A stretch of DNA of 64,000 nucleotides, from positions 150,846,001 to 150,910,000 of the forward strand of contig OZ024741.1 in assembly GCA_964016885.1 (NCBI GenBank). The letters run 5' to 3'. The translations under genes were made by a program, and so were the position numbers. The notes under the pieces are model-generated. The model ran no database searches. It saw only the letters and a program-made list of their open reading frames with translations, and was not told the origin of the DNA. This document shows, piece after piece, positions 3,800 through 45,365 of this stretch (position 1 is the stretch's first letter; each line of letters starts with the position of its first letter). This stretch comes from Eledone cirrhosa (taxonomy: Eukaryota).

Positions 3800-4930
3800 C
3801 AATTAAAAGCAGCATATCATCACAATATAAACCAATAGCTACAATCTTAAGTTAGAAATAGAGAATAACTATAAAATTGTTAACTTTTTAGACGTAACAT
3901 TAACACAGGGCTGTACTATCCTATCCATTCCATAACATTAATGAGAATCTAAACTATGTAAGTTTTAACTCTAATCATCCTAGAGCTCTCAAGAACACTA
4001 TTGTAAATTCTATCCAACAACGTATTTCACGCATATCCGCTAATAAAAACATTTTTGACGATAAGGCAGAATATTATAATGAAGCTTTAAATAGAGCAGG
4101 CTATATAAATAAGATTAAATACACCAACAACAGTGATAAGGAAAATAACCCTACTATTAATTATAATTACAATAAAAAATGTAACTGAAACTCGAAAACT
4201 AACAGAAGAAATAGAACTAGAAATATAATTTGGTACTCACCCCCATTCTCATTAAGCGTTAAAACACCTTTAGCAAAGCTATTCTTTAAAGCACTAGATA
4301 AATGTTTTCCAAAAGCCCATAGAGACCACTCAATCTTTAACAGGCATACAATAAAATTATCTTACTCTACTACTATGAACATAGCACAAAATATAAATAG
4401 AATCAATAATAGAAATTTAAACCATAACCAAAATAGCAGTAATATCTCTAGCAATATCCAGCATATTAGTACCGTTCCGAATAACATCAACACCGCTAAA
4501 TGTAACTGTAGAGTTAAATCAAACTGTCCTTTAAAAAATAAGTGCTTAGATAAGGACGTGGTCTATAAATGCACAATCAAAACCAGTGATAATATATTTA
4601 ACTATGTAGGTTCAACTTCTACAGACTTTAAAAGTCGTTGGAATAATCATAAATGCTCTTTCCGAAAACTTGATAAAAAATCTTCAACTTCTCTATCAAA
4701 CCTGATATGGAAATTAAATTGCAAAAATATGGACTATTCTTCAACTTGGGAAATAATTTCGAAAGCACCTGCCTACCGAAACACAGCTTTATCTTGATTT
4801 TGCAAATTGTCTGTTGAGGAAATTTTCTTCATACTTAAATGTAAGAACTCTATTAATGTACGAATGAATTTATTTAGTTCTTGTAAACATCACCTAAATT
4901 CAACGTTTAGAACTATATATAAATTATAAT
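3800..4930 (+). mobile_element. Penelope-like element remnant (RT thumb/linker + GIY-YIG endonuclease), with stops
   Basis: Translates as NFLDVTL...SNHP...IIWYSPPFSLSVKT...CNCRVKSNCPLKNKCL...VVYKC...YVGSTSTDFKSRWNNH (ORF 4375-4797). Confidence 0.9.
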
Positions 4931-5551
4931 TACACTTATAATATTTCTACTTATTTCCATAACAATCTTATCCACTCTGTTTTAATATATTGTTATCTCT
5001 AAATCATATCTATAATATTTGCTATAATTTCACTTCTTAAAATTTCTTAAAATATATACATATATGATCCTAACTTTAAAATTTTTAAATTTTAATTTTT
5101 AATTTTAATTTTAATTTTAATAATTTTTTTTAATTTTTTTTTTTTTTTTCTTAAATTTTTCATATATTTTTAAAAATTACTTATTTTAAAAATTACTTAT
5201 TTTTTAAAAAATTTACTTATCTCTTATAAATTATGTTTTAAAAATTTTCCCGAATTTTTAATATTTTTTAATAAAATTTTTTAATATCTTTTATTAGATT
5301 TATAACCACTAAATTCAGGCTAAATATATCTTTCAACATTTATAACTTTAACATTTATACTTATTTTGACAAAATAGTCTCATACTAACGAATAAATAAA
5401 CAAAACTGGAGTTTTTTCCGTATCTTCTTAGTTAACTTAATTTAATTTAACTCAATATTTACTTACATTAAATATAAAATAATATCCCCCATTAAAATAA
5501 TTATCTATAACACGATATACCCATCTATCCATTTATCTATCTATTTATCTA

Positions 5552-28760: not shown

Positions 28761-28890
28761 ATCTATCTCTCTCTCTCTCTGAATTCTCCATTTCTTGAAG
28801 AAGGACTTCGTCCGAAGCGCCCAGCCCTCCTCTACTTCCTTCAATACCTCTTTAACTACATATAGTAATAATGATAATAATAATAATAAT

Positions 28891-29196
28891 CCCGAAACTG
28901 ACAACCATGTTCAATGACTGCTTGATGTCCGGTGAGGTACCAGAGTGGTTGACAAAAGGTACCACAGTTCTGATAATGAAAGACCGAATCAAGGGTAATG
29001 ATGTTACCAACTATAGACCTATCACATGTCTGTCCGTAATGTGGAAACTGTTGACAAGCATTATGTCTGAGGAAATTTACCATCACCTCCACACAAACAA
29101 CTTGTTACCGGATGAACAGAAAGGATGCCGAAAGAAGTCACGTGGTACAAAGGACCAGTTACTTATTGATAAGATGGTAATGAGGAATTGCAAGAG
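28891..29196 (+). mobile_element. R4/Dong LINE family A, RT fragment
   Basis: [11 protein letters not shown]...NYRPITCL...[20 protein letters not shown], nearly identical to 40143-40448; preceded by (TAA)n. Confidence 0.95.
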
Positions 29197-31503
29197 GTCG
29201 TTGAGCAGGCGACCCTGCTTCCAGGGTGACCCCAGGCCGCGAACATTTAAACTTCCTACTCTTAATATGGCCATATTGGTAAGCTAAGAGAGAGAGAGGG
29301 AAGGTTTAATTACCTCCCGGGTCTTGTGAAGGTCGGGTGGTTCGACCTCCATGGTTGGTGGGGTTTCTTTTGGGAACCCCTTTAAAAGTCTTGATGTGGG
29401 TTTCACATTCGGGGTTCCCACGTCTTGAGGAAAGCTCTCTCGAATTTCTTTGAAGGAATTGAGTGACATTCGGACCAGAAGCAAATCTTCTGGCACGCAA
29501 AATGTGTTCATTTTAAAAATCTCCCCCTCTGTTTGAATGTCCTCGCTTCGCGCTAAGAGGGCCATCAGTTTATCGTTGGCCCTTCTGACAAGCACGAAGT
29601 TTTTAACATTTTGTTGGTGTGGTTTTATTTGTTTTCATTTTGGTGAAGGTGGTGGCGATGGTTTTGGTGGTGTTGTTTCGGGTATGTCTATGTTTGTTGT
29701 AGGTGTGGTGTCTGCAATTTCAGGTATTTGTGTGTTTATTTGTACTTGTGTTTGTTTAGGTTGTTTGCGTTTCGGGGATTGTGGAGGTGGTGTCGATGCT
29801 GCTGTTGGTGATGATGTTATTGGGGAAGTGTTTGCGTTAGTCGTGTCTGTATTTTTTGTTGTGTGTGTTTTTGTGTTTTGTTGGGGCTTTTTTTTTGTGA
29901 GTTTTCTCTGTTTTTTTTTGCACTTTGGGGTTTTCCTTCATCTTCGCTGCTGGAAGACAAAGGGTCTGTGTCTGTGAGTGTCTCTGTGTCTGTGTGTGCG
30001 CTTATTGTTTTGTCTATGTGTATAATTGAGGGGGGGTAGGGGGGTAGGGGGAGTGGGAGAGCTTTCCTCGTTTTCTCCTTGGATTGGTTTTGGTGTTGGT
30101 GGTGATCCGACTGCTTTTGATGTTGGTGTCCGTGTTTTTGTTGATGTTGTTTTTGGTGGTGGTGGTGGTGCAGCTTTCTGTGCTGACACTGGCGTTGGCA
30201 ACAAAGGAGGTTTGCGACCCCCTGCATTTTTGCGCTGAGGGCAGAAGGCTTGAAGATGCGTTGCGTCCCCGCAGACGAAGCAGCGTGGCCTTCTTCCGTC
30301 AATCATTAGTTGGATTGTTGTCCCGTCCTGCAGGCGGGCAAAATCCGGGATGTTATTCATATCCTCCGGTTTCATTTGGAGAAGAATCTCCAAATCCATT
30401 CCGGACCAGTCCTCTCTCTCTGTCCTTTTGATGTCCAGGAGGGTAGTGTCTATCCCCTCCTCGATTACGCATCCCAGCAGCCACCATAGGTTCATTCCTT
30501 GTGGGATGCTGGGAATGCGTACCTTCACTGTCCTTTTACCCATATAGGACGGATGCATGATAATGCGTTCCGTTCTGCAGGGGGTCACCGAGTGCTTAAT
30601 AGCGAGGGCCTCGGTTTTGAATAGTACCGAGATGGTACCGAACTGTTTGCCTCTTGCTTTGTACTCTATGTTACTTCCGATGTACTCCAAAGCAGCCTCT
30701 ACCTCTGCTTGGCTCGCAAGTTCCACTTTTCGTGTCTGCACCGAAATACATCGAAAGAGCACCGTCCTCCTTTGCATGGCCGCTATTGCCTCGTCCGGGA
30801 TGGTCAGGTTTTCCCAGGACTTCTCTCGTTTAATTAGCCTCCACGCTTTGGCCAACTGTTCGTCTTTATCGCTAATATCAATATCAATATTCAATAAGCG
30901 CTTTGTTTTTGCTGCTGCAGCAAATGTGGTGTTTCTGATGCTCTTATTGTTGTTGTTGTCATTCTTGGTGTTGCCACCGCCATCCTTGTTTACATTGAAG
31001 CTGTCGGCCTTATTGTCGTTATTGCTCTGAGTTGTTGTTGTTGTGGTGGTGGTGGTGGTGGTGGTGGTGGTGGTGGCGGTGGTGGTGATGTCGTTTTCAG
31101 ATGATACTGCTGCTATGGCAGAAGATTGTGATGGTAGCTTTTGAGTTTTGCCTTCACATTCAGTAGAGTGGATGACAGGCATGACTGTAGCCGTCGTAGT
31201 CGTGGTGAAATCTGCAGTGGCTGCCTTTAACTTTTGACCTGAACGTTGTTTACCGTTTCAAGGTCGAACATTTCCATAATTTTCTTTTGGTGGTGAAGCG
31301 ATTTTTTTCGAAGTTTTTAAAAATAAATCTGAATATTCGGGCTTAAAGCCCGAATATTGAGAGGTATCCCTATCTTTAAATCAAGATGTGTACCTTAAGT
31401 TTCGTTAATGACAAGAAAATACAAAAAAAAAGACACTTTAAAACAGCTTAAAGTTACGAACCTTTTCCCCCGCAGATTTGTATTGTCTTCACACATGTGC
31501 GGC
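29193..31503 (-). mobile_element. Tx1/L1-clade LINE 5' half: 5' UTR, ORF1 (frameshifted) and first 27 codons of ORF2
   Basis: ORF 29938-31182 has the gag knuckle CFVCGDATHLQAFC; ORF2 ATG at 29274 reads [27 protein letters not shown] (APE domain start). Confidence 0.9.
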
Positions 31504-31504
31504 G

Positions 31505-31567
<63 letters not shown>

Positions 31568-31569
<2 letters not shown>

Positions 31570-32361
31570 CCACAGACATGGAACTGGTTGAAAAGAGGAG
31601 ACCTCAAAAAGGCTACAGAAGGAATGCTAATGGCTGCGCAGGAGCAGGCCCTCAAAACGAAGTGGTTGAAGCACCATATCTACAAGGAGGAGGCTAGCCC
31701 ACTGTGCAGGATCTGTGGAGAGAGAGAGGAGACTGTGGCTCACATTGTGTCCGAGTGTAAACACCTAGCCCAGACCCACTATAAAGGCTGGAGACACGAT
31801 GTGATGGGCAGGGTGATCCACTGGCACCTGTGCAAAGTAAACAATTTACCACATTCTGAGAAATGGTATGAGCATAGGCCAGAGGCGGTGATGGAGAACA
31901 ATCAGGTGAAGGTGCTGTGGGATTTTAGGATACAGACGGACAAAAAACTGGAACACAATAGACCTGACCTGGTGGTTGTGGACAAAGAAAAAAGATCGTG
32001 TCTGATTGTGGATGTGGCCTGCCCGTTCGACACGAGAGTGCAAGAGAAGGAGAGGGAGAAAATTAACCGATACCAGGACCTAAAGTGGGAGGTGAAAAGG
32101 ATTTGGAACTGCCATGAAGTCAAAGTGATCCCGATTGTCATAGGCGCACTGGGGACTATCTCCAAAAGTTTCCAGGGATGGTTAAAGAAAATCGGCCCCT
32201 TCACGCTTTTTGGAACGCTTCAAAAGGCATGCTTGCTTGGAACAGCAAGAACCCTCCGATACGTCCTGAATATCTGAGGCTGCAGGTAGTGGCTTGATAT
32301 TCAATCCAACGGACTTTCCAGTTAACCAACATCAATGACTGAGATTCAAGGAATAACAACA

Positions 32362-32399
<38 letters not shown>
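31568..32399 (+). mobile_element. R4/Dong LINE family A, 5'-truncated (CCHC + restriction-like endonuclease) with (TAA)n tail
   Basis: CRICGEREETVAHIVSEC, RHD, RPDLVVVD...IVDVACP...KINRYQDL; stop at 32277; (TAA)n on both sides. Confidence 0.95.
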
Positions 32400-32400
<1 letters not shown>

Positions 32401-34457
32401 TTTTCTTTATTAACCACAAGGGTTCACATAAAGTAGACATTAAGGACAGTACAGGACAATACAGGACGGTACAAATGGGCATTTCTGCGTGTAAAAAAAC
32501 AGAGGTTGAAATAAAATAACAAAGAAAAATTCCCCAATAGGGGGGAGACTTCCAAGGGACATTTGTGGAGAAAGCCCATTAAAAGACCACAGTGGCCCTG
32601 ACCACCAGGGCAAGTGCCCTCTCCCAGTTTTCCACCTTTAATTTACAGACACATACTCAGAGAAGGCCCATTCATTCGGGCCATACTTGCTTCTCTCACC
32701 CATCTTTCAACAAAATGCTGGGAAGAGAGCACTTCCCTCTCTACCCTGATTTTCCTTTTCAAATGAAATTTGAAAAAGTTAATCAGGGCATCACCGAAGA
32801 GGTAAGTGCTCGTCTTCAGCCCTTTCAAACGTGTCCACCATACTATCTCTTTCGCCATGGCCACCAGACAGATAAAAACTGCCTGCCCTTCCAGGCTAAA
32901 GGAAGGGGGTGGGGCAATCCTCACGATGGACTCAGCTGATAGCTGGATCCGTCCTACACGTGACAGCAGGTGTTCGACATAAACCCACAAGTCAGCAATG
33001 CTCGGACACTGGACGAGTGCGTGCAGGACGGTTTCGTCGCCCTGCGCGCATCTCGGACATGCCCGGCTGACGGCACCTCCATGCCTGTAGAGTTTATCCC
33101 GAACTGGCAAAGCTCCTCGGTAGCACTGCCAGGCCAGGGATTTCTGGAAGTTGTCCATAGGCCCCGGCCCGAAAGTCCTTCCGAAGAGATTGGCTAGTTG
33201 ATTTTCGTCGACGCCTAGAGTTTCTCCAAGTACGTCGTCGCTCTTCCCCTCCACTAATCCCCTATAGAACGCCAAGGTGGAGTTTCCACCGATCACATTG
33301 CCCGATTGGTCGAGGGCTGTAAGCGCCTGAAGACATTCCAGTCTCCAAGCGCTCCCTCTCGGTCTTCGCTTGACCCAGGACTGCAGCTCCGTCAAGGAGA
33401 CGAGCTGGGGAAAAACGTGTCTTGCAAACGGCGACCACACCTGATCACCGTCGAGGAAGAGGTGGAGATGTCGTAGCCTGAGCGCGTGTCTGCGCATCAT
33501 CAGCCACGGCATGCCCAGCCCTCCACGTAGCGGGTGTTGACAGCAGATAGACCGCCTGACCATCGGAGCGCGTCCCTTCCACAAGAAGCGAAAGAGCAAA
33601 CGCTCCAGCGCAGTCAGGCGGGGCTTAGGACAAGGTACGACGGTCAGGCGGTAGTAGATGACGGATGCGATGTACGCATTCGCCACCTCCGCTCGACCTT
33701 TTAGGGATAGCTTCCTCTCGGCCCATTTCTGGGTGAGAGAAGCCACCCTGCTCGTCACCTCGTCCCAGTTTTTGTCCGTCTGGAGGTCTGGACCGAACCA
33801 GACCCCTAGCAATTTAACCGGTCCGTCCGTCCAGCGCCCGACGACGCTGTTGGACGGCATGGACCTGCCTCTCCAGGTGCCGAGCTGCAGGCCCACTGAC
33901 TTTTCCTGGTTGATCATTGCTCCTGTCACCGCTTCGTATTCTCTTAGTGTAGTGCCGATCGCCTCGATGTGTTTGGCGTTCGACACCACTACGGTGACAT
34001 CGTCGGCATATGCTGACACGGATCTTCCGCATCCTAGTTCGCGCGGGACCCCCCTCAACGTCTCCAGTTTGTGCAGTAATGGCTCGAGAGTCAATACGTA
34101 CAATAGGGACGAGAGGGGACATCCTTGGCGGACTGAGCGCATGATGTTGAACGGTTCCGAAAGGTGACCGTTCACTCTCACTACAGAGCAGATGTCGCTG
34201 TGCATGGCAGCGATCCAGCCTCTGAAGACGGGCCCAAAGCCAGCCGCCCTCAGGACTGCCGCTAGGTAACGATGGTCGACCCTATCGAAGGCTTTCGACT
34301 GATCTAAATTGATCAAAGACCCACCCGTGCCAGGTTCCCTAGCTACCCTCTCTACGATGTATCGCATGAGGTGGAGGTTGTCGTGGATGGATCTGTCGGG
34401 AATGGCGCATGTCTATGCCTCTCCCACCAGACCACCAACGACAAGCCCCAACCTCAA
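32400..34457 (-). mobile_element. Tx1/L1-clade LINE ORF2 3' part (RT + CCHC), 5'-truncated
   Basis: ORF 32643-34367: LDQSKAFDRV, VRQGCPLS, YADD, CPRCAQGDETVLHALVQC; AATAAA at the 3' end followed by (TTA)n. Confidence 0.97.
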
Positions 34458-34485: not shown

Positions 34486-37400
34486 TTGAAGGATGAAATT
34501 ATGATCGAATGGATGAAAATGAAAGAATCTGACATGGGGCAACGAAACACCCTCCCTAAGATCCAGAACTCCAAACAGAACCAAAAGATAATACACAAGA
34601 CTAACATAATTCTCAAAAACATTATCATCACAAACAAACTAAACATTACTGATTTAAATCATCTCTATTATGCATCGGCTAAAGTCACCACTCACTTATG
34701 TGGAGTGAAGATGGAAAAACAAAGGAATTCCCACAAGAAATCTACTTGGCAAGAGAACATCAATCGCCAAATAAACCTTCTCCGATCTGACATAGAAATT
34801 TTAACAAACTATAAAGTAGGTGAACATGTTAAATAAACTAAACTTAGAAAATTGAAAAGAAAGTACAGTATAAAATCAACAAGTGACATAGACATGTTGA
34901 TAGAAATAATCAAACAAAAAGTGTCGGCCAAAGCTGCTCGTATAAGGCGCTTTGAAAAACGATCTAGATTCTATAAGGACAATAATATGTTCAAAAACAA
35001 CCAAAGAAACTTCTACAGAAAAATTAGTAAGTCAACAATAACTGCTAAATCAATACCACCCAAGGAGGAAGTGCAAGAATTCTGGGAAAAGATCTGGGCC
35101 GAAGAAAAAGTTCATAACATACATGCCCCATGGATAGACAGACAAATGAAAGATACAGCTCACCTTGAGGAACAAATATGGGAAAATATAACAGTTGAAC
35201 AGTTGCGCTTGGCTCTAAGAAAAACCAGTAAATGGAAATCCCCAGGAAAAGACAAAATACAAAACTTTTGGATAAATGCCTTCACAGAGTCTCATGAGCT
35301 GTTAGCCCAACTTTACAATGAAATAGTTAAGGAGCCAGAAAAGATACCATCATGGCTAGTTAACGGCATTACATTCCTGCTTCAGAAGAATGATGAGACA
35401 AACAATCCCAAAAATTACAGACCGATAACTTGCTTGACCACAAGGTATAACATTTTAACATCAGTCCTAACTGAATACACATATGACCACCTGATAACAA
35501 ATGACCTATTTCCCATTGAGCAGAAAGGGTGTAAACGAGGCTCATATGGCTGTAAGGATCAGCTTCTGGTTAACAAAATGATACTGGAAGATTGTCATAA
35601 TAGACACAAAAATCTATCGATTGCTTGGATAGATTATAAAAAAGCATTCGATAGTTTGCCACACAGTTGGATTGAAAAATGTTTAGAGATTTTCAAAATA
35701 TCCCCCGTTGTCAGGAGGTTTTTGTCATTCAGTATGAAGACATGGAAAACGACACTCCTTTTGAATAGTGAAACAAAATCACTGGAAGCTGGAGAAGTTA
35801 ATATTAATTGTGGAATTTTTCAGGGTGACTCTTTATCACCGCTTTTATTCTGCATCGCACTTATACCATTAAGTAAAATGCTCAATGAAACAAAACATGG
35901 ATATAAAGTCTATGACAAAACCATTAATCACTTGTTCTACATGGATGACCTGAAACTATTTGCAAAAAATGATGAACAATTGCAAGGGCTATTATCCACT
36001 GTGGAGCAGTTCAGTGATGACATTAAAATGGAGTTTGGACTAGACAAATGCGACAAAGCAACGTTCACCAGAAGAAAGCTGCTGAAGAGTTCAGACATTA
36101 ATCTTGATCGGGGGAACGTGATAAGAGAAATCTATCAAGAAAAAACTTACAAATATCTAGGTGTTTGTGAAGGAGACGGTATCAAGCACTCGACAATGAG
36201 GGAAAGGATAAGGAAGGAATGTTACCGCAGAGTAAGAGCAATCTTAAGAACGGAATTGAATGCAAGGAATAGGATCGATGCCATAAACACGCTTGCCATA
36301 CCAGTAGTAACCTACAGTTACAATGTCATCAACTGGTCAAGCACAGAGATCCGTAGGCTCGATACAAAAATTCGAAAATTCTTAACCATGCACAGAATGC
36401 ATCACCCTAAGGCAGATATAGATAGAATATATCTCCCTAGGAAAGAAGGAGGACGTGGGTTAATCCAGTTAGACATTGCGTTGAAAACTGCAACAATTGG
36501 ATTATCTACATATCTAAGGGAATCACATGATTGGATGATCAAACTCGTTTTGAAACACGAAAGCATCAAAAGATCATATTCCATTACAAAAGATGCACAA
36601 AGATACAGTAATGGACTACAAATTTCAGAAGTCCCATTTACTGCTGAAATGGAAAACACAGAAAAAGCAAAGCAGGTAAAAGTAACTGCAAAGAAAGAAC
36701 TGCTACAGAAACTGGCTAAGAAATGGCAAGAAAAGCCTCTGTATGGAAAATACCCAGAGCGAGCTAACAATCCTGATGTTGACAAAACTTTAACCCATCA
36801 GTGGTTGGCATCCTCTGGACTGAAATCAGAGACTGAAGGACTGATTATATCAGCACAAGATCAGTGTCTGCCAACAAAAAATTACCAAGCCAACATAATA
36901 AAAAATGGATGCAGCCCATTATGCCGTGTATGCAAAAAACAACCAGAGACCATTGACCATATAATTTCAATGTACAGTCCTATAGCTCCAACCGAATACC
37001 TAAACAGGCATGACAGAGCTGCACAATACATACATTGGATAATGTGTAAGCATTTTGACCTGCCCCATCAAAAGAATTGGTGGGAGCATCAACCACCTCC
37101 CATACTTGAAAAAGATCACATCTCAATCTTGTGGAACTTTAGCACCCAAACAGACCGAAAAATAGATGCAAATAGACCTGATATAATATTGAAGGACTTC
37201 AAAAAGAGGGTATGCCTGCTAATTGATATGTCTGTTCCAATAGACAAGAATGTATCTATAAAAACATTTGAAAAATTGAGCAAGTATAAGGACCTGGAGA
37301 TAGAAATTGGAAAAATGTGGAAATTGAGATCTAAAACAATACCAGTGGTTGTAGGCGCTCTGGGAATGATACCTAAGGGGTCTAATGATTACTTATCGCA

Positions 37401-37651
37401 AATCCCAGGAAACGCGCGTATAGGAGAAATACAAAAGATAGTACTAATGGGAACTGCCCATATACTAAGGAAGATTCTGTCAATATAAGTACATCACAAG
37501 TCTAAACACTAAAGATGCATGTGTGAGTATGTATGTTCTTTCTTGAACATGGCGGACCTTGTTGTCTCTTGAGGTCACTGGTTGTGACTTGGTGATAACT
37601 CGTATGAACATAAAGCAAGATAAATGCAGGTGTAATAATAATAATAATAAT
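34486..37651 (+). mobile_element. R4/Dong LINE family B, 5'-truncated, 878-aa RT+RLE ORF
   Basis: ORF 34852-37488: [54 protein letters not shown]; in-frame stop at 34834; (TAA)n on both sides. Confidence 0.97.
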
Positions 37652-38273
37652 AGGGAAGATACGCACATGGTGGATAGGGTATTATGGAATCGCTCCCGTA
37701 AGTTTTTGATTTTTTACATATTTAAAATAATTGTGATAGAATAATTCTTATTACAAATGAAATGTAAGATATCAGTCAATACTCTCAGGAAGTGGCAACG
37801 CATCACATTACGGCATAGGGCTCCAATATTTAATATTTAATTTAATATTTAATTTTGTACCAGAAATTTTATAGTCAGAAAAGAAAATGGCTAGAAAGCA
37901 ACAGCCAAATAACTTCACCACCAGCACCACCACCACCGCCGCCGCCACCATCACCATCACCACTACCACAAAAAATCTAGCCAAATACAAACCAGCACCA
38001 TCCCTACAGTACTGCTTCCCCATCACCACCGCCACCAATGCATCATCGCTACCGCCACTATTCCCTTACTACTTAAGAGAGGAGTGGTGGTGCCGCTACA
38101 CATGAAAAGAAGCGAGGAAGGTATCAAAAGATATAAATAGACTGGGTTAGTGACTAGGTCAAACAGCTAACAACAACAACAACAACACCAAAATAATTAT
38201 GTTGTTGTATCTCTAAACTCTCTCAAAATGTTTAGTTTAAACGATGTCAAATCTAAACTATAATATAATAATA

Positions 38274-38360
38274 ATAATTGCTTCTGCTTTTGGCACGGGG
38301 CCAGCAATTGTCCCGGTGTGTTGCAGGTGCTTTGTGGTGTCGGCCCCGTAGGGATGAAAG
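38274..38360 (-). mobile_element. SINE S1 3' fragment with A-to-G hypermutation on the + strand
   Basis: Aligns by eye without gaps to the copy at 42627, and closely to 44790. Confidence 0.8.
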
Positions 38361-38689
38361 TAAAAAAATTATAGAAAAAATTATAGTCGAAAAATTATAG
38401 AACAGAACACAGGCAGAAGCAAACACAACAAACACAAATTTCAAAAGTTTTGAACACAACAACCCCTACTTCACTTAGCAGCAGCAGCAACAACAACACT
38501 AGTAACCGATGTCACTGGCCTTGTAAAACGTAAAACGCAATGGAGAAATCAAACAAAAAAAGAAAAAAAAAAAGGAAAAAAAAACTAAGTCAGACATTCA
38601 AACATTACAATGAAACTTGTGTTTTTTTTTTGTTTTTTTTTAGGTTTTTATCTATTTGTTTGTTTGTTTATTTATGTTCGTCTACAGCG

Positions 38690-41600
38690 TGATGATGCCA
38701 CGCTAAAATCACCGGGGGTGATGAAATCACTGGGGGTGATGAAATCACCGGTAGTTATGTTACCATACATTCACCAATCCTCGATATGAGTGCTTAAATG
38801 TCGGACCTAAACAGTTCGAATAACGGTGAAGTGGAGACTGGAATGTCATGTGACAGACTCTCACCCAGCAGGTGCTCCCTGGTCCAGCACAGGGACCTGG
38901 CTGTCATCCAAATACTGCTGGTGTTGGAGGAAGAAGCAGAAGGAAAGTGACCAGAACCAACTGGACGAAAGAATTGAATAGAACTGTTATGCAATGTTAC
39001 CTGAAGAGTAACCCCAAGGAAAAAGGCTATAGGAAACGGATGCATAACATCTGGAACGAGATTGGTCTATTTAAATTAGATGAAATAATTATTGGCCGAG
39101 CAGGCTCGGGTAATAAGAACTAATGGGTGGATAAGCGAGCTGAAACTGGAGGAACTGAGCAGACAGATTAGGTTGGAAATGGAGAGTGGAGTATGCCAGG
39201 CAAACGAGCCAGTGGGAAATGAAGGTGAAGAGGTTGAGAGAACGGAGGAAGCATCCGAAGCAGACAATGATCTGAATGCTGAAATAAATAATACCGGGAA
39301 CATAGATACGGCCATTGAGGAAATGGATGCTGACGGGCTAGGACAAGATTTGGTTGATATCCTAAACTTAGTGGTAGATGAAATGAACAATGATAGTGGG
39401 AAACCTATGAATCTAAGATTTGTAGACAGGAAAAAGTTAAAAGAAACAACAGCTAAGGTAAACAAAGTCATCCCATACCTTGAGGCGAGGAGCCTTCACT
39501 AGTGCAACAATATCCTCAAAGCAACAGCAAATGCGGTGAGGAAATTACTTGGCATAAAAACGAGAGGAAACAACAAACAAGAAAGATCAGAACCTTGGTC
39601 GAAGAAACGACTGAATGGTCAAATCAGGGAAATGAGAAATGACATTGGAAAGCTTGAGTCCCTACTGGGACACTAAAAAACATAGACACTAAAAATAGAT
39701 TGGAAATAAAGTACAAAACTAGGAGGAAAAAGCTAAATATTATCATAGAGGAACTGAAACAACGCATTGTAGCAAAGAGTGCAAAAATCAGGCGATACGA
39801 GAACAGAGTCAGTCAGTATAGACAGAACCGCATGTTTGACAACAACCAGAAGATGCTGTTTGGACAGCTTGAAGAGAAAGAAAGAGGCAACGACTTGATC
39901 CCTGAGGCGGAACAAACTAAGACATTCTGGAGAGGAATATGGGAGCAGGATATTAAACATAATGACCAGGCAGTGTGGATTGAGGCAGTACAAAAGGTGA
40001 TTAGTGAACAGGCACACCAGCAAACTGATTTGAGTATCACGGCTGAAACTCTTAAAGGGCAGGCCAGAAAACTAACCAACTGGAAATCACCAGGCCCAGA
40101 TGGTGTGCAGGGGTATTGGATTAAAAATATAACATCCCTCCACCCGTAACTGACAACCATGTTCAATGACTGCTTGATGTCAGGTGAGGTACCAGAATGG
40201 TTGACACAAGGTACCACAGTTCTGGTAATGAAAGACCGAATAGAGAGTAATGATGTTACCAACTATAGACCTACCACATGTCTGTCCGTAATGTGGAAAC
40301 TGTTGACAAGCATTGTGTCTGAGGAAATCTACCATCACCTCCACACAAACAACTTGTTACCGGACGAACAGGAAGGATGCCGAAAGAAGTCCCGTGGTAC
40401 AAAGGACCAGTTACTTATTGATAAGATGGTAATGAGGAATTGCAAGAGGAGACACACTGGTCTTACCATGGGATGGATAGACTACAAAAAGGCATTTGAC
40501 ATGGTGCCTCATTCTTGGATCACCAAAAGCCTAGAGATCTTCAAGGTGGCAGATAACATCAGACAGTTGTTGAGCAAAAGTATGAAGTCCTGGAAAAGAG
40601 AATTAACATCGCCTAGAGAATCCTTGGGAGGCGTGAAGATCAAGAGAGATATCTTCCAGGGAGATGGTCTGTCCCCTATCTTGTTTGTCCTTGCCCTGAT
40701 GCCCCTGACCATTATACTGCAAAACGTGAGAGCATGATACAAGTTTGGAAAGGGAGAGCATACCATCAATCACCTCCTCTTCATGGATGATCTTAAGCTC
40801 TCCGGGAAGAGTGAGAAGGAGTTGAATGTGCTTGTTGACACTGTCCGTATTTTCAGCAATGATATATGTATGCAATTTGGTATTAGTAAGTGTGGAGTCC
40901 TTGTGATGAAGAGGGGTAAATTGAGCAGAAGCAACGGAATCCAGGTACCAACAGGTGAGATGATAAAGGAAATTGACACTGAAGAAGGCTACAAATATTT
41001 AGGTGTTCTGGAGGCAGATGACATCAAGAACAAAAAAATGAAGGAATTGATAAGATCTGAATACATTCGGAGAGTAAGGGGCGTATTAAAATCACATCTG
41101 AACAGTAGGAATGCCATAAGTGCAGTAAATTCCCGAGCTGTGTCTATTATTAGGTACAGTGCGGGAATTCTGAGATGGAATGTTGCTGAACAAAAAGAAA
41201 TGGATAGGAAGACTAGGAAGCTATTGACTATCTACAACATGTTCCACAAGAGGAGTGATGTCGATAGACTCTACTTAAGGAGATCTGAAGGTGGAAGAGG
41301 TCTTATCAGCATAGAGGACTGTGTTCAGATGGAGAAAAAACAACCTACACAAATACGTGACTGATAGTAGGGAGCCAATGCTCAGAATTGTACTGAAGGA
41401 GAGGACAATAGACCAGGGGATGTCCAAGGAGGAAATAACAACAAGGAGAAAGAGCAACCTTCATGAAAAATCCATTCATAGTACCTTCTTTGAGAAAACT
41501 GAATTCAGAGATCCGCAGACATGGAACTGGTTGAAAAGAGGAGACCTTAAATAGGCTACAGAAGCAATGCTAATGGCTGCGCAAGAGCAGGCCCTCAAAA

Positions 41601-42299
41601 CGAAGTGGCTGAAACACCATATTTACAAGGAGGAGGCTAGCCCACTGCGTAGGATCTGTTGAGAGAGAGAGGAGACTGTGGCTCACATTGTATCCGAGTG
41701 TAAACACCTAGCCCAGACTCACTATAAAAGCTGGAGATATGATGTGATGGGCAGGGTGATCCACTGGCATCTATGCAAAGTAAACAATTTACCACATTCT
41801 GAGAAGTGGTATGAGCATAAGCCATAGTCGGTGATAGAAAACGATCAGGTGAAGGTGCTGTGGGGTTTTTAGGTGCTGTGGAACACAATAGACCTGAACT
41901 GGTGGTTTTGGACAAGGAAAAAAGATCGTGCCTGATTGTAGATGTAGCCTGCCCATTTGACACAAGAGTGCAAGAGAAGGAGAGTGAGAAAATTAACCGA
42001 TACCAGGACTTAAAGTGGGAGTTAAAAAGGATTTGGAACTGCCATGAAGTCAAAGTGGTCCCGATTGTCATAGGCGCACTGGGTACTATCTCAAATAGTT
42101 TCCAAGGATGGTTAAAGAAAATTAGTTCCGCCCCGCTTTTTGGAACACTTCAAAAGGCATGCTTGCTGAGAACATCAAGAACCCTCCGATACGTCCTGAA
42201 TATCTGAGGCTGCAGGTAGTGGCTTGATATTAATTTCAACAAACTTTCCAGTTAAATAACATCAATGACTGAGACTCAAAGAACAATAATAATAATAAT
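38690..42299 (+). mobile_element. R4/Dong LINE family A, near full length, pseudogenised
   Basis: N-terminal WTKELNRTVMQCY...GYRKRMHNIW; RT motifs DYKKAFD, IFQGDGLSP, FMDD; RLE C-terminus; many stops and frameshifts; (TAA)n tail. Confidence 0.95.
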
Positions 42300-42405
42300 G
42301 ATTTCATTTATTGGCCACAACGGCCGACATGTAGGGGACATACAAAGACACGTACAGTGGAGGTTTACAACAAGCTCGAGTAAAAGTGCACAATAGCAAC
42401 ACCAA
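42300..42405 (-). mobile_element. short 3'-terminal fragment of a Tx1-like LINE
   Basis: Reverse complement ...gttgtggccaataaatgaaatcattatt is homologous to the Tx1 3' end at 32400-32455. Confidence 0.65.
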
Positions 42406-42439: not shown

Positions 42440-42822
42440 TAATAATTGTTTCTACTTTTGGCACAAGGCCAGCAATTACCCAGTGCATTACTGTTACTTT
42501 ATTTTATCCACTCCGTAAGGATGAAAGGTAAAGTTAACCTCGGCGTGATTTGAACTCAGAATGGCAAGGGCCTTAACTCTATGCGTCAAAGCATGGCGTC
42601 CGACCCTCTACCGATACTGCCAATCCTAATAATTGTTTCTACTTTTTAGCACAAGGCCAGCAATTGTCCCAATACATTACTGGCACTTTATTCTATCGAC
42701 CCCGTAAGGATGAAAGGCAAAGTTAACCTCGGCGGGATTTGAGCTCAGATCATAAAGAGCCGTAACTCTATGCTGCAAACCATGGCGTCCGACCCTCTAC
42801 CGATACTGCCAGCCCACCTCCC
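42440..42822 (-). mobile_element. two tandem SINE S1 copies
   Basis: Copies at 42440-42626 and 42627-42822. Confidence 0.92.
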
Positions 42823-44789: not shown

Positions 44790-45365
44790 ATAATTGTTTC
44801 TACTTTTGGCACAAGGCCAGCAATTACCCAGTACATTACTGGTACTTTATTTTATCGACCCCGTAAGGATGAAAGTCAAAGTTAACCTCGGCGGGATTTG
44901 AACTCAGACTGTAAATGGACGTAACTATGCTAGAAAGCATAGCGTCCAACCCTCTACCGATACTGCCAATTCACCGATAAGAGCAAAACACAATGAGTCA
45001 GCAGTTTGGTGAAACCAAAGAAGCAGACAGCTATATACAAAAGAAAGAATGCGATGATTACTTACGAAAGAAAGAGGGACAAGAATTAAAAGTGAGATGG
45101 CTAGAAGGAAGACGCGCATAAACATTATAGGAGGATGAAATAGTATTTACTCACAGTCATATAACATTTCAAATGTCGTTGTTCCAATGAAGAAACGAGC
45201 AAAATAATAGTTTCTGATTTAGGCACAAGGCCAGCCATTTTTGGGGAAGAGAAAGTGAATTAAATCGATCCCCAGTGCATTACTGGTACTTTATATGTCG
45301 ACTCCGCAAGGCAAAGCTAACCTCGGCGGGATTTGAACTCAGAATATAAAGGGCCGTAACTCCAT
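44790..45365 (-). mobile_element. two SINE S1 copies (44790-44975, 45204-45365)
   Basis: Meta domain and tail on the minus strand. Confidence 0.9.

Follow-up and report, generated by a model that had tools for sequence, protein, structure and literature searches.

An RNA edit is commonly assumed to be lost together with the transcript that carries it. Retroviruses offer one departure from this view: A>G hypermutated genomes of avian leukosis virus and spleen necrosis virus are said to have been found fixed as proviruses, as Hajjar and Linial, for example, reportedly described in 1995. There, as at the locus described here, ADAR-type editing of a duplex would have been written to DNA by reverse transcription. 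Those proviruses are single clones of exogenous viruses, whereas the present case concerns a germline non-LTR element that multiplied after the apparent editing and seems to have been edited again.

Deaminase scars in retroelements are known for the APOBEC enzymes (Knisbacher and Levanon 2016, PMC4866542; Zaranek et al. 2010, PMC2873906). APOBEC editing of LTR retrotransposons resembles our case in leaving a deaminase scar of retrotransposition, seen as strand-biased clusters in the genome. The APOBEC clusters consist of sense-strand G>A changes made by a cytidine deaminase on the cDNA of vertebrate LTR elements, whereas ours are A>G and lie in non-LTR elements. An APOBEC screen found none in 19 invertebrates, and ADAR is absent from the main text of that report (PMC4866542).

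ADAR editing is described as general in metazoans (Zhang et al. 2023, PMC9989829). Hyper-editing of repeat dsRNA, as described by Porath et al. 2014 (PMC4365171) and in PMC9989829, shares with our case the dense A>G changes on one strand, the young repeats and the inverted pairs. Those studies deal with differences between RNA and DNA, whereas here the changes have become fixed in the genome and have passed down to LINE subfamilies. ADAR1 and ADAR2 also meet LINE RNA as L1 restriction factors (PMC8677026, PMC4982230). A cell assay did not detect editing of L1 RNA (Frassinelli et al. 2021, PMC8677026), and a review calls the role of ADAR editing in Alu/SINE subfamily evolution not determined (Goodier 2016, PMC4982230). 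The edits here appear to define subfamilies, and amplification was not stopped. A literature search over titles and abstract openings, with few subscription papers covered, found no description of a LINE family that had inherited ADAR edits. What is new here is the founder effect, together with the repeated rounds and the controls from paired arms.

Judging from sequence comparison, we consider it highly probable that RNA edited by ADAR entered the germline by reverse transcription and gave rise to LINE subfamilies.

The host LINE and its antisense SINE fragment

The locus lies in the window, by which we mean the whole 64,000-nucleotide stretch of Eledone cirrhosa DNA that was analysed (Table 1). 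A genome search with the SINE fragment gave 874 candidates, and all 40 of the scored hits were 95-100% identical to it. LINE sequence surrounds the fragment in nearly all of the 30 hits that were fetched, and a motif found only in the LINE flank has 63 exact matches. The earlier note had described a SINE fragment with an A>G cluster. The cluster stands, and the reading as a lone SINE copy was rejected, the fragment being multi-copy and borne by a LINE. Within an R2-like LINE family, here called family A, it forms a constant component of the 5' region and runs antisense to the element. Copies that bear the fragment are dispersed over several chromosomes and form four successive groups in our tree, the window copy belonging to the third (G3).

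Table 1. Positions in the window of the host LINE, the SINE fragment and its changes, and the SINE comparators
Feature	Position	Strand	Remarks
Host LINE copy, family A	37652..42302 (3' end approximate)	+	From copy alignment; one broken ORF; group G3
LINE 5' non-coding region	37652..38800 (approximate, especially the 3' limit)	+	
(AAT)n tract, SINE insertion site	38260..38276	+	
SINE fragment	38274..38361	-	3' ~88 nt of tRNA-type SINE, antisense to host LINE
A>G of the apparent founder burst	38286, 38297, 38298, 38310, 38315, 38320, 38323, 38329, 38334, 38339, 38343	+	LINE-sense strand
Later A>G in fragment	38351	+	
Later non-A>G changes in fragment	38281, 38325, 38336, 38337		
Later A>G cluster outside SINE	38425, 38436-38438 (within 38425..38438)	+	Youngest group (G4); window copy still A
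A>G shared by G3 and G4	38545, 38643, 38658, 38666 (within 38545..38666)	+	Window copy G
Reverse-transcriptase part of host ORF	40150..40737	+	RVT_1
Unedited full SINE comparators	42442-42624, 42629-42811	-	0 and 2 A>G
Unedited full SINE comparator	44790..44972	-	0 A>G

The reverse-transcriptase piece of the host LINE has R2 proteins as its top five structure hits among solved structures. The R2-type reverse transcriptase, together with an endonuclease-like motif in the ORF at 41821-42207, places the element in the R2 group (RLE), which is marked by a C-terminal CCHC finger and a restriction-like endonuclease. Family A copies reside in (AAT)n, which would agree with the Dong LINEs of the earlier note (Dong / R4 clade, with TAA-repeat targets). 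Many of these LINE copies took extra private SINEs in the (AAT)n tract, nearly all of them unedited (29 such pieces have no more than one G at the 11 founder sites).

Several R2-like LINE copies stand head to tail in (AAT)n in the window (28856-29287, 31399-32277, 34837-37488 and 37652-42302). An 883-aa stop-free stretch at 34837-37488 comes from a family related to family A. An L1-like element lies on the minus strand at about 29500-34400, between two family A-like ORF pieces. At the place that corresponds to window position ~39292, five copies (L005, L011, L012, L021, L116) have a same-site insertion in the ORF, a SINE where checked, which may represent an insertion hot spot or a common insertion.

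The SINE family is abundant in the genome. The orientation of the SINE was read from A/B-box-like motifs on the minus strand of full copies; ARAGORN detected no tRNA gene in it. Over 88 nt, the window fragment differs from L151, the closest free SINE copy compared, by A>G at 12 of 24 As and by T>C at 1 of 30 Ts, with no G>A, two T>G, one T>A and one G>T at the junction. This A>G excess has a Fisher p of 7.5e-5, and at the background A>G rate the binomial probability of 12 or more such changes is 1e-13. The background sample, 81 SINE hits from 40 evenly spaced 10-kb stretches (400 kb), is symmetric (A>G 61/2453, T>C 53/2216), with at most 5 A>G in any copy. The one-strand, A>G-dominated cluster of the earlier note is thereby borne out. 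Of its neighbour counts, the single changed A with a 5' G is correct, and a recount against L151 raises those with a 5' T from five to 7 of the 12.

The Gs are also present in raw genomic RAD-seq reads of two other samples (runs X5 and X6), as the earlier note would lead one to expect, with G in 24/24 and 19/22 reads at 38320 and in 20/25 and 21/23 at 38315. Since these reads may derive from any family A copy, they confirm the Gs for the family and not for the window locus alone. From run X4 (organism B, share 0.07) came nothing beyond pieces of the SINE end and a single piece of LINE flank, which does not suffice to date the event. Polishing of the assembly with edited RNA reads, or sequencing error, might produce such Gs artificially, for instance at the single-copy loci L365, L291, L293 and L366, since the read check covered family A and the inverted-pair locus L296; the runs X1-X3, whose contigs are identical to the arms of L296, may be the assembly's own sample. 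The same Gs occur, however, in 73 LINE copies on several chromosomes, where they have since decayed like old DNA, and in the reads of the two other samples, and the contigs do equal L296. The chance of an artefact is negligible.

Order of the changes in family A

The fragment states were ordered on a tree of 85 rows, with the SINE excluded from the alignment. Three basal LINE copies, which make up the whole outgroup, are without the fragment. The next group has the fragment with 11 A>G and nothing else changed (L174 against the free SINE L151). Later groups acquired stepwise one more A>G and six other changes, and the window copy holds five of these seven. The founder Gs lie on the LINE-sense strand, and in the descendants of that founder the 5' region went on to acquire further A>G.

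Our census of the 11 sites took in the 77 of 90 copies that have the full piece, the other 13 being left out. The number of Gs is 11 in 47 copies, 10 in 19, nine in six, eight in one and 0-1 in four; 73 of the 77 scorable copies thus have 8-11 Gs, and none has 2-7. The four copies with 0-1 G are two basal ones with private SINEs and two in which the founder piece is cut or missing, and only private, later SINEs were scorable in them. Three duplicate rows (L024, L089, L030) were dropped before the tallies of G counts, private changes and subfamily changes.

A search for the junction of an unedited founder in the LINE found none: 25 of the 30 junction hits fetched (39 in total) are free SINEs, and the remaining five are LINE-flanked and all carry the founder Gs. 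Since no unedited founder-LINE precursor occurs among the copies examined, the order of insertion and then editing in the founder is one that we infer.

The Gs are diagnostic of subfamilies, a circumstance that the earlier note had named, for gradual changes, as able to undo its reading. Ordinary subfamily evolution, whether by gradual diagnostic changes, by GC-biased conversion or by selection for a G-rich 5' structure, would produce such Gs, and it gains something from the six later changes other than A>G within 88 nt, four of which are T>G or T>C, and from a second, APE-type LINE family with up to 4 T>C (see below). Yet 11 of the 12 Gs arise together, and the lack of intermediate G counts argues against a gradual subfamily change. 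The founder step has neither T>C nor T>G, and the same signature is found at unrelated single-copy loci. As for a selected structure, no fold of the fragment plus flank was stable against shuffles in the 16 of 22 copies that were extractable (z -1.5 to +1.4). A hairpin of the fragment with its downstream flank, considered as substrate or as selected structure, was rejected; it appeared in one fold only, was unstable against shuffles and was inconsistent between copies. For the founder step, ordinary subfamily evolution is largely refuted, and we hold it to be scarcely probable as the explanation. The other changes that the earlier note had counted in the window copy are later, and from the sequences compared the first step looks like a single, pure A>G burst.

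LINE changes outside the SINE were polarised with the outgroup; a first polarisation, which mixed branches, was discarded. At the subfamily level, the 5' region outside the SINE has A>G at 14 sites and T>C at 1 (binomial p = 0.006, given base content), and the ORF has 9 A>G and 8 T>C (p = 0.87). Private changes after insertion are near-symmetric in UTR and ORF (A>G 7.1-8.3, T>C 6.3-7.0 per 1000); the comparison of A>G with T>C in the flanks that the earlier note had proposed thus comes out symmetric for changes of this kind.

The post-burst changes other than A>G are concentrated in the fragment: its 88 nt have six of them, while 985 nt elsewhere in the 5' region have 4 (p = 4e-5), an 18-fold difference in density. 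This suggests later selection or conversion. The six changes weaken the predicted duplex with sense SINE from -145.5 to -132.4 kcal/mol and, on that model, may represent an escape from pairing.

Some copies (L112, L163/L172, L289, L300) are chimeras of the edited fragment and an adjoining SINE, as expected of recombination or template switching within the LINE 5' region.

Replicate clusters and their neighbour signature

Besides the founder we count at least 13 further A>G events, at least 14 in all with each lineage counted once. A second antisense SINE in a family A sub-lineage has 12 A>G of 45 A (6 of 8 hits), and some members of this sub-lineage gained further A>G. In three copies (L183, L173, L230) A>G changes were added after insertion. 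An APE-type LINE family, recognized by an Exo_endo_phos match above cut-off and having 1648 candidates, has an edited antisense SINE of its own, in which most copies show 8-18 A>G and 0-4 T>C; two copies have private unedited or recombinant SINEs. To judge from its motifs, this family may belong to the RTE clade, in which a single ORF has an N-terminal APE endonuclease. Its tree is weak (649 columns), and only the extra Gs of L230 were used from it. Edit sets in this family that had seemed mutually exclusive (L305, L306, L311) were set aside as perhaps caused by partial recombination with unedited SINEs. In family A and the APE-type family alike, the changes are shared by dispersed copies and lie on the sense strand of the unit that moves as RNA.

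A search with an antisense three-G pattern gave 35 hits, every one of which was examined: 21 fall in family A and 3 in the APE-type family; a further 3 are in related LINE 5' regions and 8 are elsewhere, so that 27 lie within LINE 5' regions. Editing is not obligatory, since the upstream antisense SINE common to L078, L098, L100 and L124, which has common private changes and no A>G cluster, was copied unedited. Among 576 distinct SINE pieces, a set enriched for A>G by the search, none is dominated by G>A or C>T, and the APOBEC-type signature of sense-strand G>A clusters was not encountered.

At four loci (L290, L296, L303, L365), the first three of which are among the 8 hits elsewhere, the SINEs form inverted pairs with both arms changed A>G on one strand, and the clusters are confined to the SINE arms. 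The partner arms of L290, L296 and L303, which were not selected by any pattern, have 38 A>G of 103 As against 2 T>C of 119 Ts. L296 has a paralogue with an unedited SINE (L336), from which it differs by 13 A>G of 20 As in the arm and 1 of 181 outside it in the block; a candidate unedited parent was found for its sense arm, and no target-site duplication was seen at L296. Next to L290 and L303 lies sequence that is related to the APE-type family.

Two loci stand apart from these. L365 (487-2060; G000:C2:367.0 Mb) is a single-copy locus at which three SINEs in both orientations carry A>G on one strand (13, 10 and 6) over 1.6 kb, with an unedited SINE piece between the changed ones. The 3 kb there has no reverse-transcriptase match, and a full-query search of the assembly for a parent copy returned only L365 itself. 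L291 (4944-5965; G000:C2:101.56 Mb) has a full-length SINE with 21 A>G and an apparent target-site duplication, a second changed antisense SINE piece 0.8 kb away and no inverted SINE partner within its 10 kb.

Adenosine deamination in DNA, acting on the SINE cDNA in an RNA:DNA hybrid during insertion or on R-loops in place, could account for single-copy sites such as L365 and L291, and in the LINE-borne cases the changed strand is indeed the cDNA strand of the SINE. The first sense pattern seemed to favour it as well, since it returned no hits where the antisense pattern returned 35. That asymmetry was dropped, the sense pattern having been too strict for the counts to be comparable; a looser one, which found L365 and L366, gave 4 of 4 heavily changed sense SINEs. 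Sense and antisense arms changed on one common strand at four loci, together with A>G added after insertion (in the three copies named above) and in non-SINE UTR, argue against deamination of the SINE's own cDNA, and we regard deamination in DNA as very unlikely.

The neighbours of the changed As were pooled over 18 segments, after removal of polymorphic columns (5 A, 3 T, others) and 3 pattern-forced sites. The edited fraction is 0.76 after T (37/49), 0.73 after A (97/132), 0.30 after C (21/71) and 0.18 after G (10/57); by 3' neighbour it is 0.68 before G (58/85), 0.55 before A, 0.45 before C and 0.35 before T (19/54). Because the 18 segments were picked as A>G-rich and SINE positions are reused, the pooled p-values make the events look more independent than they are. 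Taken by themselves, the unselected sense arms have the same 5' trend (p = 0.02), while the 3' trend is not clear in them (p = 0.3). Metazoan ADARs favour 5' U/A over C over G and a 3' G (PMC9989829), and hyper-edited reads are depleted of 5' G and enriched for 3' G (PMC4365171). As far as sequence context can tell, the bias here, with 5' U/A high, 5' G low and 3' G high, matches ADAR. The A>G signature thus recurs independently with ADAR-like neighbours and is confined to SINE arms.

An error-prone polymerase without any deaminase is a further candidate, either through polymerase eta-like repair at WA motifs or through an A>G-biased LINE reverse transcriptase. Polymerase eta has a WA motif, so the high rates after T and A would fit it too, as would the position of the changes on the LINE-sense strand. 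Such an enzyme would, however, have changed half or more of the As with hardly any other class of change (11 of 11 in the founder step), and a 3' G is favoured in the pooled data. The sharp borders of the clusters at the SINE arms, as at L296, and the unbiased ORF, which is copied by the same enzyme, argue against polymerase error, and we give it very little credence.

Probable editing of the LINE transcript and its meaning

The reading that we prefer, ADAR editing of RNA followed by reverse transcription, can be set out as a series of steps. A SINE would have inserted, unedited and antisense, into a master LINE, whose transcript would then have paired with sense SINE. Two partners are conceivable for this duplex, a Pol III SINE RNA acting in trans and an inverted SINE nearby on a read-through transcript. 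ADAR would have deaminated about 11 As in one pass, and the LINE reverse transcriptase would have read inosine as G into a new germline insertion, which then presumably founded LINE subfamilies. The earlier note had the hyper-editing fall on an RNA antisense to the SINE and of the same sense as the flanking LINEs, with reverse transcription afterwards. Our results support this and sharpen it to the LINE's own transcript; they place the edit in an ancestral master copy and not at this locus.

The SINE in (AAT)n is antisense to the LINE in all cases seen, so the LINE transcript is able to pair with sense SINE. This pairing is predicted at -149 kcal/mol, whereas the best partner within the LINE itself is weak, at -51 kcal/mol. 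In the predicted fold, the 14 A>G sites outside the SINE show no more pairing than the remaining As (0.29 vs 0.39, p = 0.82).

For sites of the L365 type, three one-strand A>G SINEs with no parent copy can also be read as the trace of edited pre-mRNA from which the germline copy of that same gene was rewritten, which would mean that ADAR-edited RNA changes host loci in place. We think this unlikely; were it true, RNA editing would act directly and repeatedly as a mutational process on ordinary genomic DNA, beyond the LINE lineages.

Under the preferred reading of edited LINE RNA, the edits appear to have founded LINE subfamilies, with recurrence in two LINE clades. This bears on the role of ADAR in retrotransposon subfamily evolution, a question that the 2016 review cited above called undetermined (PMC4982230), and it provides named sites for testing. 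The reading implies a germline ADAR active on retrotransposon RNA, and a LINE that is not necessarily stopped by editing of its 5' region. The A>G scars would be a fossil record of past editing and, if the reading is true, RNA editing would be a source of inherited DNA change in the host animal. Repeat dating and RNA-editing calls can be distorted by A>G-rich subfamilies, because edited-looking reads may be genomic copies.

A few other arrangements were observed. At L295 (L273/L274, G000:C3:122.63 Mb) an edited SINE and its flanks occur twice, as inverted copies separated by 0.7 kb. The A>G of the two copies are therefore on opposite strands, which indicates that duplication came after editing. 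L297 (G000:C3:354.4 Mb) has a SINE with 9 A>G in a tandem array of LINE 3' ends in (AAT)n and more G-for-A differences in the adjoining 3' tail, a possible 3' transduction. The (CA)n/(TG)n/(TA)n microsatellites next to the edited arms of L290 (oriented 4500-5400) also seem rich in G, which gives the impression that these tracts had been edited. A 350-bp near-perfect palindrome (98.9% self-inverted) lies at L171 5062-5411, upstream of a copy of the APE-type LINE.
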